NCBI GenBank assembly: GCA_043817075.1
Contig: JBDRHG010000017.1
Coordinates: forward strand, 16,492 to 80,491
DNA: 64,000 nt
DNA from: an archaeon
Lineage (GTDB): Archaea > Nanobdellota > Nanobdellia > Woesearchaeales > JAADFO01
Direction: 5' to 3'
Shown: positions 512 to 15,081 of the stretch, in pieces
Position numbering within the stretch: the first letter of the stretch is position 1
Layout of the letters: the number at the start of each line of letters is the position of its first letter
Notes under the pieces: model-generated
Told to the model about the DNA's origin: nothing
What the model saw: the letters and a program-made list of their open reading frames with translations, nothing else
Database searches by the model: none
Translations under genes and position numbers: made by a program

Positions 512-3500
512 TCAGTTCCCGACTGGATAGACGGCGAATCCAGATACGGTGACGCTTCCAGGCCCTTCTTCTCCACAGTTCGTCGGACCGTAGCATCCTT
601 CTTCTGCCACACAGACCTTATCGCACATGGTCTGCTCGCACTCTGTGGCTGACTTCAAGGAAAGTTGATGGCTGCCGGCTGAGAGCTGGAACGAGCCCAA
701 GTATTCCCATCCGCTGGTCACCAACAACGCATCATGGTCATCATCACCCGAGATGGGGCCTCGGGTTCCGCCTATCTCGACGAAGAAGTCCTCATTCGCC
801 TCCTCCTCACAATACATGCTGTTGTGCTCGACCAATGGACAGGTGAACGTATCTGCGAAATACTCCGCCATGTTGGCATAGGTCCTACCGCAGCCAGTCG
901 AATGGTAGTTCCACCAATCAGCATGGCCTGTCTGGGCCGTGAGCTGAGCCTGAGCAGAAGAAGCACAGCCTCCTCGATCGACGAGACCATAGACCTTGTA
1001 GGCTCCTGATGAAGGAACAGAGATGGACATGCCAGCAGTCGCAGGTATCGACTCGCTGCAACCATCACCAGCTACGGTAAGATCCGCTGCTTGGGTGGCT
1101 GGACCATTGAAGACGATCACCTCTATATCGAGAGCGCTAACAGCGTTGTCACCATCCGTGTCTGCGACCATGCAGACCGCAGTATGATCGCCTACATCGG
1201 TGAAGATGTGAGTGGCGGAAACTGACTGTCCAGGTGCCTTGTCCAGGAATTCATCACCTGCCGTACCGTCACTATAGGATATGGTGAAGACCAGTGGTCC
1301 TTCGCCACCCGTAGCCGTGCAGGAGAACATCGCGGTCAGCGGAGCGAACCCTGACTGTACGTTCGAGGAGAACGCGGTGACCACTGGCGCCATGTTCTCG
1401 AACAGACATATCGATGAACAGCCGTCACCATTGGCGACTCCACCGTCATCGCATTCTTCTTCGTCCTGTATCCATCCATCACCGCAATGCGGGCCCGTGA
1501 TGGTGACATCAGTGCAATCATCCTCGCAGTATTCGCAGGTCTCGCCATAACCGGCACTGCACACCAGGCCATTGTATTGGGCCAGGTCGCACTCTTCCTG
1601 GCCCTCGGTCACGCCATTGCCGCAATAGCCGCCGCCGACCGTGGCCACAGCACATTCGTCAGAGCAATAGGTGCAAGAACCCTCATATGAAGGGGTGCAA
1701 GGAACCCCGTTGTCGAACCCTTCATCGCACTCTTCGCCGGCGTCGCGGACACCGTCGCCGCAAAAGACCTCATCAGGTCTCGGGCAATCGGCCCAGAGCC
1801 AATAATTGGAATCTTCAGTGGTGGTCTCGAGCTCATACATGCCCGCGATGTCTGCATCGAATGTGATGAGGACAGAACCGTCGATGTCATCCGGATAGGG
1901 CTGATCATACTCCTCATCGAATATGACGTGTCCTTCGGGATCGGTGATCTCGACCGTCATCTCCCTGTAGTCTATCCCCTGTCCGGGCCTGTTGATGGTG
2001 TACTTGTCGAAGAACACGAAATCGTACGTGTCCGGGATGAGATACATCTCATTCGTCTTATGGCCATCATGGACGATGTCCATGTTGTCGATGTTGTAGG
2101 CGGGATTGTCCTTGTTCTGAGCCAGGAATCCCTGGATGGCGCGTGCCCCGAGGTCCATCCCGCTCCAGGAGAGCGATGCGTCGACAGAGACCTCGGCGCC
2201 ACGGTAGGTGTCGATGGCGCATACCTTGACCCCGAAAGAGTCCTCGAAACTCTTGGGACAGGTGATGGGGACATCCACACCGTCAAGCTGCACTTTAGTA
2301 AACACGGTATCCTTCCGAGAGAAGACCACGAGCTGATCATACCAGACCTTGAAAGTCGTGGCGGCGGGGATGAAGGGATTCGGCGGATTCTGCCGTTGAT
2401 AGAAATACAGATCCCCTTCGCCCTGGCAGGTGCGGAAGGGTAGTGTCTCCTTGACGCAGAGCGCAGAACACCCATCATCATCGATATTATTGCCGTCGTC
2501 GCATTGCTCATAGCCTGTGCCAAATGGGTTGTTAGGCGTAGGCGGTCCTCCGAGTCCTTCGCCGTTGGGCGACTGCATTGTGCCGTCGCCGCATTTGGTG
2601 AACCTACAGGCATCAGAGCACTGGTCGGTCGGATCGCCGTTCTTGCCGTCGTCGCAGTCTTCTCCCGTGTCCACGATGCTGTTTCCGCATCGGGGCTGGT
2701 AGACATGTTTGCATGAGCAGACAGAGAGATCACAGATATCATTGGTGTTGGGGTCTACGTCCGCGCAATCCTCATCGACCGCGCACGCCGCGCCGCACTG
2801 ATCCTTGACGCAGGCATAATCATAATCTGTCTCCTGGCAGCCGCAGGTGGCATCGCAATCGCCGTAGCCATCACGTGCCCCGTATTTCGGACCGTCACAA
2901 TCCTCAGAGGGCTGCGGACAATACTGGTTCAGGGCGGTGCCGGGATACTCACACTCCTCACCCTCATCAAAATCGACCACACCATTATCGCACTGGGGAA
3001 CGTACACATGGTCACAAGAGCAGGTCTCCAGGATACATGCATCATTGGTATTGGGATCAAGATCATCACAATCCCCATCGCCTGCACAGGTGGCACCGCA
3101 AGAGCCGACCACACAGGCATAATCATAATCCGTCAACTGACAGCCGCATGTGGCATCGCAATTGCCATATGCAGGACGGGTGCCGAGCTTGGCAGCATCA
3201 CACTCTTCAGGATCCTGGGGACAATACTGATTCTCGGGCGTGCCAGGATACTCACACTCCTCACCCTCGCTATAATCGACCACACCATTATCGCACACAG
3301 GGACATAGACGTTATCGCAAGAACACGTCGTCAGGCTGCAGGAGTCATCAGTCAGCGGATCCAGGTCATCACAGTCGGCATCCACGGCGCATGCTGCGCC
3401 ACAATTGTCAGCCACGCATGCGAAATCGTAATCGTCTTCCTCGCAACCGCAGGTCTCGGAGCAATCACCATATTGATCACGAGTCGCGGTGAAGACACCC

Positions 3501-14005: not shown

Positions 14006-15081
14006 TTGCCAGTGCCTGCAGACTTGGTCGTATCGATCGCGTCTGTCGCGTCAGGGTAGTTGAGGAGATATTGGTCGATTTCGGTCTCGAACTGATTTTC
14101 GAATTCGAGATCCTGGATCGAATCGGTGATTTTCCATATATAGAGCTTGCCGTCGACGAGGATCTTATACTCCTCGCCGGCGAACACGTCGTACACCGTA
14201 TTCACCCGTACGCCGTCCGTGGATTCCCGGATATCACCGATGCCGAGGATGATGACTTCGCCCCGGTTGAAGGAATTCGCGGTACGGGTCTCGTCACCGC
14301 CATATATCTTCCCGCGCACGGTATACCAGAGGCTCGAACCGGATACTTCAGGGATCTCCATCGGTGGGATTGGGAGCCGGGGTATTTTGTATGGTGGCGG
14401 GTAAAAAATCTCTATCGGCGGGAACGTGGGGGGAGGCGGGATGTCCTCAGGGAAAGGCATGCCTGTATGGAAGATGACATAAGGCTCATAATCAGGGATG
14501 TTCTGCGGGACAGGAGGGACGAAAGCTGGGATTGCAGTGGATGGATAACGCTCACCCATGACACCCTCCGGCGGCGCGGGGACTGAGAGGTCGGGATATG
14601 TTTCGGTGGGCATGATCTCTCGGAATGGATTGTTCATGCGGAAGGAATAAGTGTTGAAGCTCTGCGGGAGGAATGTGTTGCCCTCATCTCCTGGTGTGAT
14701 GTAACGGCCTGAGCGGGGATCATAATAGGAATCGAACTCTGACATGCCATGCTCTTCATCATACATCGCTCCCTGGAACTTGAGCGGTTGGGGAGGGCCC
14801 TCGTGCAGCGTCATCATCTCGCCGAACGGTAAGTAATATTGCGCTTCCACTTCGTTGCCTTCTTCATCGTACATGCCTCGGACATTGCCCAGGCCGTCAT
14901 TCTGCATATAATGGACCGCTTCAGTGTCGTTGATCAGCACCATGAGCTCGCCGTTGACGTAGACGAAGCTCTTTCCTGCGGAGACGAGCGGGACGAGACA
15001 GAGCGTCAGCAGGAGCATCGCGACAAACATCCGCACAAATTGCTCATGCTGCTGCATCGTTGCCCTCCGCTCTGCACTCAT
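14002..15081 (-). CDS. secreted RHS repeat-associated core domain protein with degenerate autoprotease motifs and Pro-rich C-terminal extension
   Basis: Signal peptide (PLVSA|GK); DGLGNVRGMYDEEG..YYLPFGE..KFQGAMYDEEHG..YYDPRSGRY..NTYSFRMNNP; the true start may be a downstream Met. Confidence 0.85.
   Translation of the reverse strand: MSAERRATMQQHEQFVRMFVAMLLLTLCLVPLVSAGKSFVYVNGELMVLINDTEAVHYMQNDGLGNVRGMYDEEGNEVEAQYYLPFGEMMTLHEGPPQPLKFQGAMYDEEHGMSEFDSYYDPRSGRYITPGDEGNTFLPQSFNTYSFRMNNPFREIMPTETYPDLSVPAPPEGVMGERYPSTAIPAFVPPVPQNIPDYEPYVIFHTGMPFPEDIPPPPTFPPIEIFYPPPYKIPRLPIPPMEIPEVSGSSLWYTVRGKIYGGDETRTANSFNRGEVIILGIGDIRESTDGVRVNTVYDVFAGEEYKILVDGKLYIWKITDSIQDLEFENQFETEIDQYLLNYPDATDAIDTTKSAGTGK

Follow-up and report, generated by a model that had tools for sequence, protein, structure and literature searches.

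Five adjacent genes of a DPANN archaeon carry collinear parts of one RHS path and probably encode a capsule divided among separately exported chains

The window analyzed here is a stretch of 64,000 nucleotides in contig JBDRHG010000017.1 of a metagenome-assembled genome of the archaeal order Woesearchaeales (1.52 Mb, 26 contigs, 89.9% complete; coded G000, with relatives coded as genome and contig, such as G090:C45). Our subject is a run of five adjacent co-oriented genes on its minus strand (512–15081) that are related to RHS proteins and to the Tc toxin proteins TcB and TcC. In the order of transcription, their open reading frames (ORFs) encode proteins of 359, 1257, 613, 375, and 2254 aa, which are, respectively, referred to as P0001, P0002, P0003, P0004, and P0005 hereafter. 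The junctions of the 359-aa with the 1257-aa gene and of the 1257-aa with the 613-aa gene are 4-nt overlaps of the ATGA type; the 613-aa and 375-aa genes are separated by a 6-nt gap, and the 375-aa and 2254-aa genes overlap by 17 nt. The five genes are translationally coupled. The shell, the core, and the C-terminal domain are not found on one polypeptide here: there are five ORFs, each with its own start and stop. The initial annotation, which had read these genes as one RHS shell split across five secreted proteins with the core gene in front, described the ORFs, their coordinates, and their junctions exactly as we find them; every peptide landmark quoted there is present in the translations, and the core gene indeed comes first among the five, upstream of the four shell genes.

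Each of the five proteins begins with a signal-like N-terminus and carries a different RHS part (all positions are on the minus strand). In P0001 (14002–15081), the signal-like residues (about 1–35) are followed by the Rhs core (36–160), a Pro-rich stretch (161–260; 27 Pro per 100 residues), and a variable region (261–359). P0002 (10232–14005) has an SpvB/TcB-like start (residues about 53–120), a hydrophobic, helical insert (about 139–260, strongest at 146–164; 13226–13591), a beta-rich middle, and a C-terminal RHS part (about 1075–1257). P0003 (8394–10235) and P0004 (7260–8387) are built alike: a Cys-rich module (residues 33–320 with 24 Cys and 43–275 with 28 Cys, respectively) precedes an RHS part free of Cys, which is 321–613 in the former and the short 276–375 in the latter. 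P0005 (512–7276) contains the last YD repeats of the shell in its RHS part (residues 30–545; 5642–7189), which is split by a beta-sandwich insert resembling a carbohydrate-binding module (CBM; residues about 110–255; 6512–6949). The remainder (residues 546–2254; 512–5641) is a tail with 112 Cys that comprises Ig-like (He_PIG/Big_9) and PKD domains and cysteine-rich acidic repeats. This tail, presumed to be an adhesin arm, is missing from the relatives whose last shell protein stops right after the RHS segment.

The assignment of these parts rests on family models and on profiles. P0001 matches TIGR03696 (Rhs_assc_core) at residues 83–155 with 37.5 bits (cut-off 32.5); it thus contains an Rhs-associated core, yet this core is on a separate protein that is encoded upstream. 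The YD-repeat models PF05593 (cut-off 22) and TIGR01643 (cut-off 15.8) match P0004 with 28.2 and 19.2 bits, and P0005 with 43 and 26.9 bits, respectively. Two matches are under the cut-offs, namely that of DUF6443 to P0003 and that of SpvB (PF03534) to P0002 (13.2 bits; cut-off 22); the N-terminal motif of P0002 is conserved across 9 sequences. Single-sequence phmmer searches of the Protein Data Bank with P0002, P0003, and P0005 gave nothing useful, so that profiles were required, and a word-based homolog search with the RHS part of P0003 found 1 protein only. A profile of 48 core segments matched the cores of TccC3, YenC2, the Rhs proteins of type VI secretion systems (T6SSs), and teneurins among solved structures (E from 1.8e-22 to 4.7e-8). 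The P0005 profile matched YD shells at 198–465 (8h8a, 534–791; E = 3.5e-44), and its positions 40–450 and 199–448 matched YenC2 70–522 and TccC2 209–494, respectively, both of which are shell regions preceding the cores. Positions 57–192 of the same profile matched the CBM of an S-layer-associated endoglucanase (2zex; E = 9.9e-10), and a CBM-like insert also lies ahead of the last RHS segment in G250:C8. For P0002, profile positions 934–1156 matched RhsA (7q97, 675–891; E = 3e-17). In the genome, YD repeats are confined to this locus and exactly one Rhs core was counted.

The mutual arrangement of these parts becomes clear when they are placed on single-chain relatives. For this purpose, the five proteins were cut into 15 segments, which were searched against the ORFs of 41 related-genome loci, and the best non-iterated hits were used. 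Iterated profiles of the YD pieces had to be rejected for positional mapping, because they turned into generic repeat models that matched in many places. On the complete chain of G090:C45 (1723 aa), the segments are found in the order of the SpvB-like N-terminus (56–118), the C-terminal RHS part of P0002 (919–1024), the RHS part of P0003 (1108–1308), that of P0004 (1317–1400), and the last RHS part of P0005 (1511–1721), where the chain ends. These best hits do not overlap with one another, so the redundant mapping that would have spoken against the initial annotation was not seen. When the unaligned ends are extrapolated on this chain, each cut in the window falls within about 10 residues of the point at which the next piece resumes. 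The same segment order was found on G122:C27, G250:C8, and G213:C20, and the RHS part of P0003 also maps to 1000–1203 of G008:C73. The core has no counterpart in the G090:C45 chain; in the relatives with canonical gene order, the core gene directly follows the piece that ends with the RHS segment of the 2254-aa type. The RHS order proposed initially (1257, 613, 375, 2254, and then 359 aa) is thereby borne out. Neither the Cys-rich modules nor the adhesin tail have a counterpart in the G090:C45 chain, and they are therefore additions at the cut points, where Cys-rich and adhesive domains had been claimed. Thus, as judged by sequence comparison, the five proteins were shown to carry non-redundant, collinear parts of one RHS path, consisting of the SpvB/TcB-like start, the middle, the YD repeats, and the core plug.

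The same division recurs in related archaea, as a search for it in related genomes revealed, with cut points and gene orders that differ. Core homologs were found in 67 of the 401 sampled genomes of the order (65 of 399 without the unpublished genomes G185 and G315), nearly all of them in ORFs of about 320–520 aa with the core near the start. For the SpvB-like start, the counts were 22 of 401 within the order and 19 of 401 in a phylum-wide sample, 8 of the latter belonging to other orders of the class. An exhaustive HMMER search gave 9892 proteins at E ≤ 0.001; the best 150 of them are mostly short, and several align from the signal peptide onward. In nearly all loci, the core and its variable C-terminal region (about 170–280 aa) form a separate small protein: none of the 16 complete SpvB-like ORFs, that of G000 included, carries the core, and only one of the 50 core-domain ORFs (G018:C11) also has several YD repeats. 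The sizes of the pieces illustrate the variable cut points: 378 (core), 672, 897, 1151, and 850 aa in G389; 348, 829, 452, and 1139 aa and a fifth gene in G235; 1219 and 840 aa and then the core in G236; and 1768 and 1220 aa followed by four tandem cores in G170:C35. The junctions in the relatives are mainly 4-nt overlaps. The split shell is not a one-off but a family trait in these archaea, and its cut points vary; the design was shown to be maintained by selection in many lineages.

Two gene orders can be distinguished. The canonical order, in which the shell is followed by the core, was found in G173:C32, G072:C73, G236:C59, G122:C27, G250:C8, and G170:C35, and the core-first order in 8 loci, namely, this window, G037, G045, G235, G319, G170:C25, G280, and G389. 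Core-first is the gene order of one subfamily only. This subfamily is coherent, since the gene order, the hydrophobic insert, and a degenerate core go together. The insert of P0002 has a mean Kyte-Doolittle value of 2.42 over 19 residues. A hydrophobic segment occurs at the same position in the SpvB-like proteins of G066, G389, G170:C25, G319, G235, G280, G037, and G045, and it is weak or missing in the canonical-order and single-chain forms. AlphaFold2 (AF2) predicted four helices in the insert with low confidence. The genome G170 holds both systems, a core-first split shell (C25) and a canonical-order locus (C35, 42000–61999); the proteins encoded by the four tandem core genes of the latter (387, 351, 360, and 350 aa) all have a signal-like start and differ in their C-terminal regions. 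The possibility that the core gene of the window belongs to an upstream shell in tandem was rejected, as P0006 and P0007, the products of the two genes upstream, have no YD repeats; such a relationship is possible at G008:C82 and G087:C92, whose core is preceded by a YD-rich gene.

In RHS proteins, the motif DPxG(L), located a few residues after NNP at the core end, is the self-cleavage motif. The 8 core-first core proteins (P0001 and 7 others) have a degenerate core with neither a GARYY-like stretch nor DPxG after NNP; instead, NNPFR is followed by an insertion and a stretch like P-D-L-x-I-P-E-A-P. Of the 46 core proteins in the alignment, the remaining 38 retain D-P/x-x-G. Because the motif is missing, the cargo probably stays tethered and is not cut free. 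Fourteen core-first proteins align through the core, and their C-terminal regions cannot be aligned thereafter. Across the 46 core proteins, the post-core lengths are 166–283 aa when the two core ORFs cut at a contig end are left out. As in polymorphic toxins, a constant delivery part is thus combined with a variable C-terminal domain, as seen in these 14 proteins and in the tandem core genes of the relatives. For the C-terminal region of P0001, a word search found the protein itself only, and the ESM Atlas gave no usable hit (pLDDT of the Atlas's own model, 0.47).

The claim that each of the five proteins has its own signal peptide was assessed with a hydropathy heuristic, which requires K or R in the first 25 residues and a 12-residue window with a Kyte-Doolittle mean of at least 2.4. 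All five shell and core proteins pass this rule, as do P0006 and P0007 (7 of 7), compared with 116 of the 655 ORFs of at least 300 aa in the genome (17.7%). The N-termini of all seven consist of a basic stretch, a hydrophobic core, and then a small-residue motif. When the first start was taken in the relatives, a signal-like N-terminus was counted for mid-shell pieces in 18 of 20 cases, for SpvB-like proteins in 19 of 25, and for core proteins in 34 of 42, several of the misses being a matter of start-codon choice. Cys-rich stretches open several mid-shell pieces in the relatives, too.

Structure prediction was applied to the end of the shell, where P0005 (residues 30–545), P0004 (275–375), and P0001 (36–160, the scored partner) were co-folded. 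The interface score ipSAE was 0.91, 0.90, and 0.91, in contrast to 0.01 for the best of three controls. The mark applied to this score is attained by 58 of 80 solved complexes and by 2 of 110 mismatched pairs, a calibration that is rough because the chains had their own alignments. The mean predicted local distance difference test (pLDDT) of the partner was 86–87, and at least 94% of the contacts were common to the runs. In the predicted complex, the last RHS strand of P0005 (519–525) pairs with the first strand of mature P0001, the tightest contacts being those of P0005 519–523 with P0001 37–40, and P0004 275–315 touches the core. Beta-strand complementation, as postulated earlier for this locus, is accordingly predicted at the one junction that was co-folded, P0005/P0001. 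For P0002, the top 13 Foldseek matches of the model were TcB chains or TcB-TcC fusions (E from 3.3e-10 to 3.7e-8); a TcB-like nature is therefore a lead, not proof. As a separate observation, the middle of P0002 (minus strand, very roughly 11500–12000) gave local Foldseek matches of its low-confidence model to jelly-roll, lectin, and CBM folds, including the BC2L-C N-terminal lectin (template modeling score 0.45 by target) and an alginate-binding CBM, which hints at another sugar-binding insert.

Two further genes on the same strand directly precede the core gene. P0006 (15044–15661, 205 aa) has a signal-like N-terminus, a small Cys-containing ectodomain, a transmembrane segment (110–128), and a tail of about 70 aa. 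In 9 related loci, homologs of it are encoded ahead of the core gene on the same strand, and an assembly factor, an anchor, and an immunity protein are the candidates for its role. P0007 (15661–17439, 592 aa), which is encoded by the first gene of the co-oriented run, has a signal-like N-terminus and 44 Cys; no Pfam family was found in it, and a homolog (E = 5.1e-38) lies at the same position in G045:C10. In G389, G235, G319, G280, and G170:C25, two extra genes are located directly ahead of the core gene, after the P0006-like gene; they encode proteins of about 190–265 aa with a signal-like start and of about 255–305 aa without one, and both are missing from this window and from G045. On the plus strand, four very large ORFs of 1264, 1094, 1071, and 6099 aa occur in a row (18632–47286). 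The 6099-aa ORF has Big_13, Glucodextran_B, Y_Y_Y, and TSP3 matches, and the 1094-aa ORF has Stig1 and MopE-type Cys motifs. Since homologs of the 1264- and 1071-aa ORFs also lie upstream of the RHS operon of G045:C10, this run looks like a conserved surface-protein island. Farther along, a membrane H+-pyrophosphatase is encoded on the minus strand (50141–52147; PF03030, E = 4.8e-280) beside a cytidylyltransferase-like protein, a ribulose-phosphate 3-epimerase, an AsnC-type regulator, and the CarA small chain; with these metabolic neighbors, the RHS island is in a normal chromosomal context. Transfer RNA and Rfam scans of the window gave no match.

The placement of the genome among the DPANN archaea, as stated initially, agrees with its marker genes: RpoB is up to 75% identical to records of Candidatus Woesearchaeota archaeon, Nanoarchaeia, and Nanoarchaeota, some RpoB matches being records under other automatic labels, and the 16S rRNA fits the archaeal model best. 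A complete 16S rRNA gene lies on contig C3, and a second, partial archaeal one (G000:C14:100393–101359; model positions 497–1467) near the end of the C14 stretch; the latter is to be explained by a further rRNA copy or by binning.

Taken together, the observation made in the initial annotation is confirmed, and its interpretation is supported. We consider it fairly probable that the locus encodes a capsule of the Tc-BC/RHS type whose single beta-spiral path is made up by five polypeptides, each exported on its own. The assembly may be pictured as follows. All chains would be exported unfolded via Sec, and the SpvB-like chain would be held at the membrane by its hydrophobic helical insert, serving as an anchor or for nucleation. 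At the cut points, beta-strands would then pair edge to edge and thereby extend the shell, whose end would be plugged by the core protein, with the variable C-terminal region of the latter inside as the cargo. The Cys-rich modules, the CBM-like insert, and the Ig/PKD tail would face outward and bind a partner cell surface. The core-first gene order could, as a speculation, make the plug and the cargo ready before the shell is closed. A broader proposal is a tentative one, which we regard as possible though rather doubtful: in DPANN archaea of the Woesearchaeota type, a capsule of the RHS/Tc kind would be built outside the cell from up to five Sec-exported chains, which assemble by strand complementation around an exported core-plus-cargo protein in a sequence set by the core-first gene order. 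The membrane-active insert and the adhesin arm would link this capsule to the host cell. It would serve episymbiotic archaea for delivery or attachment upon contact, and it would prove in nature that RHS shells are modular.

Several points weigh against the divided capsule. One group concerns the models. The co-fold covers the last third of the shell and the core, that is, three of the five chains, and its high score may reflect likeness to solved single-chain RHS structures; it indicates compatibility with the RHS fold rather than assembly in the cell. The AF2 model of P0002 (residues 58–1257; a 17-row alignment) had a mean pLDDT of 55.5 and a predicted template modeling score of 0.54; its template modeling score to TcB in Foldseek was just 0.19–0.24, with T6SS Rhs proteins ranking behind (E > 1e-4). 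P0001 alone, modeled by AF2 with 14 sequences, had a mean pLDDT of 47.9, and its C-terminal region was unmodeled. Another group concerns the sequences. Some collinearity hits are weak (E > 0.01 for the middle parts), and the collinearity rests on the best non-iterated hits because YD repeats are self-similar; likewise, the signal peptides are putative, being called by a hydropathy rule. The last group concerns biology and sampling. No Pfam toxin family was found in the 46 core proteins, and no immunity gene was recognised, the SpvB-like shell gene being what follows the core gene. Five unfolded chains would also have to meet outside a cell that has no outer membrane. The locus was not found in searches of G001, of the same genus, and of G002 and G003, of the same family. 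Finally, when contigs from three DNA sequencing runs of two studies were compared with the locus, they yielded 12 identical pieces of 151–322 bases, none of which bridges a junction.

The alternative that survives best, although we consider it unlikely, is that the five are independent surface proteins in which a piece of RHS sheet serves as a scaffold or interaction module, perhaps in variable combinations or with other partners, and that no closed shell is formed. The separate export signal of each protein, the large non-RHS domains on three of them, and the variation of the cut points between genomes would all be expected in such a case, as would an unrecognizable cargo region and the loss of the self-cleavage motif. 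However, the pieces are non-redundant and jointly reproduce the whole path of the single-chain relatives. In addition, a YD piece of 100 residues (P0004) and a core of 125 residues are unlikely to fold alone, as the pLDDT of P0001 by itself also suggests. The tight coupling of the genes, the single core and single set of pieces in the genome, and the passing of the mark by the co-fold speak against this alternative as well.

It is still less probable that the locus is a canonical two-part polymorphic toxin, with the shell genes as the delivery capsule, the small cores as exchangeable toxin cassettes directed at competitors or at the host, which they would kill, and P0006 as the immunity protein. 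The length of the variable post-core regions (166–283 aa) is near that of TcC hypervariable regions, 97.9% of which are 201–400 aa according to PMC7861908, the relatives have up to four core genes in tandem, and a P0006-like gene is conserved nearby. Nevertheless, P0006 is encoded upstream and is conserved, not variable; the core proteins have no toxin family, P0001 has no DPxG, and a genome search for TcA-type translocator families gave no match (controls being silent as well). Moreover, this scheme is compatible with the divided capsule and not exclusive of it. A single RHS gene that is decaying or mis-assembled, with stops due to frameshifts, assembly errors, or recent pseudogenisation and with pieces that have no function as such, is a very improbable explanation, for even in a metagenome assembly of 26 contigs and 89.9% completeness with no read or contig spanning a junction, every piece has a start codon and a signal-like N-terminus, two pieces open with Cys-rich modules of 230–290 aa that are missing from the single-chain forms, frameshifts would not make such new starts, signals, and modules, and the same architecture with signal-like internal starts occurs in independent assemblies of several other families. 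An alternative genetic code or read-through was rejected too, since a separate start and a signal-like N-terminus are present in every piece.

RHS and Tc capsules have been thought of as one- or two-chain shells that are folded in the cytoplasm around their cargo. If the divided capsule proposed here is real, the beta-spiral tolerates division between repeats and could assemble after export, which bears on how such capsules are folded and loaded. Small DPANN archaea engage other cells with a surface machinery for which the locus offers a candidate that can be tested. Moreover, the small core proteins that look like 'orphans' in these genomes, as well as the short YD proteins, may not be fragments but subunits.

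Among known systems, the BC cocoon of Tc toxins (TcdB2-TccC3 and YenB-YenC2) is like this locus, as interpreted here, in the following respects. One is that a start that is SpvB-like, putatively so in P0002, is located on the first shell protein; another is that the RHS beta-spiral is formed by multiple chains; and the last is that the core plug is followed by a variable region (about 200–300 aa). The best structural matches of P0002 are also TcB. However, the cocoon consists of two chains, whereas here there are five, each with a signal-like N-terminus, and the upstream position of the core gene, the absence of DPxG, and the hydrophobic insert after the SpvB-like start are peculiar to this locus in the comparison. 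P0001, with 359 aa and a mature form that begins at the core and has no shell repeats, is unlike TcC, to which half of the RHS shell belongs. A length of 851–1050 aa is given for 97.2% of TcC proteins in PMC7861908. As to the TcB middle (propeller) domains, SpvB is the sole Pfam family matched in P0002 at E ≤ 0.1, the AF2 model being too poor for a judgment by fold, and the TcA families PF18276 and PF03538 had no match in the 89.9%-complete genome, nor in 14 control genomes, which were silent too.

In the 'TcdB/TcaC' export class, which Zhang et al. 2012 (PMC3482391) list for Euryarchaeota and many bacteria, a signal peptide is likewise joined to an SpvB-type domain and RHS repeats. In that class, a signal peptide, an SpvB domain, and an integrin-like propeller lie ahead of an RHS-repeat toxin, and the accessible part of the text mentions no division of the shell among genes (PMC3482391). 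Here, by contrast, the shell appears to be spread over up to four genes and the core with its variable end to be exported separately, and a Pfam search found no integrin-like propeller family. T6SS Rhs effectors (RhsA 7q97, RhsP 8h8a, and Tse5 8cp6) have a homologous YD shell and core (E down to 3.5e-44). They are described as single chains that are cleaved after synthesis, carried on VgrG/PAAR, and exported by the T6SS; the locus here has neither PAAR nor VgrG, its putative signals are of the Sec type, and its split is genetic.

Teneurins are extracellular, membrane-anchored YD shells that have a core plug and Cys-rich and beta-sandwich decorations and function in cell-cell adhesion. The cores of teneurins and bacterial teneurin-like proteins (6fb3 and 9ifo) matched at E of about 1e-13 to 1e-19; these proteins are, however, single type-II membrane chains with no split and no variable cassette logic. 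A full-text literature search, with subscription journals and supplements outside its reach, found no paper on a multi-gene split RHS shell or on RHS systems in DPANN archaea, and none of the papers listed combined a YD/RHS-repeat term with a DPANN term. The closest known systems are the Tc BC cocoon and the 'TcdB/TcaC' class, from which the locus differs in the number of chains, the signal on each chain, a core protein that has no shell repeats and whose core is degenerate, the order of the genes, and the hydrophobic insert.

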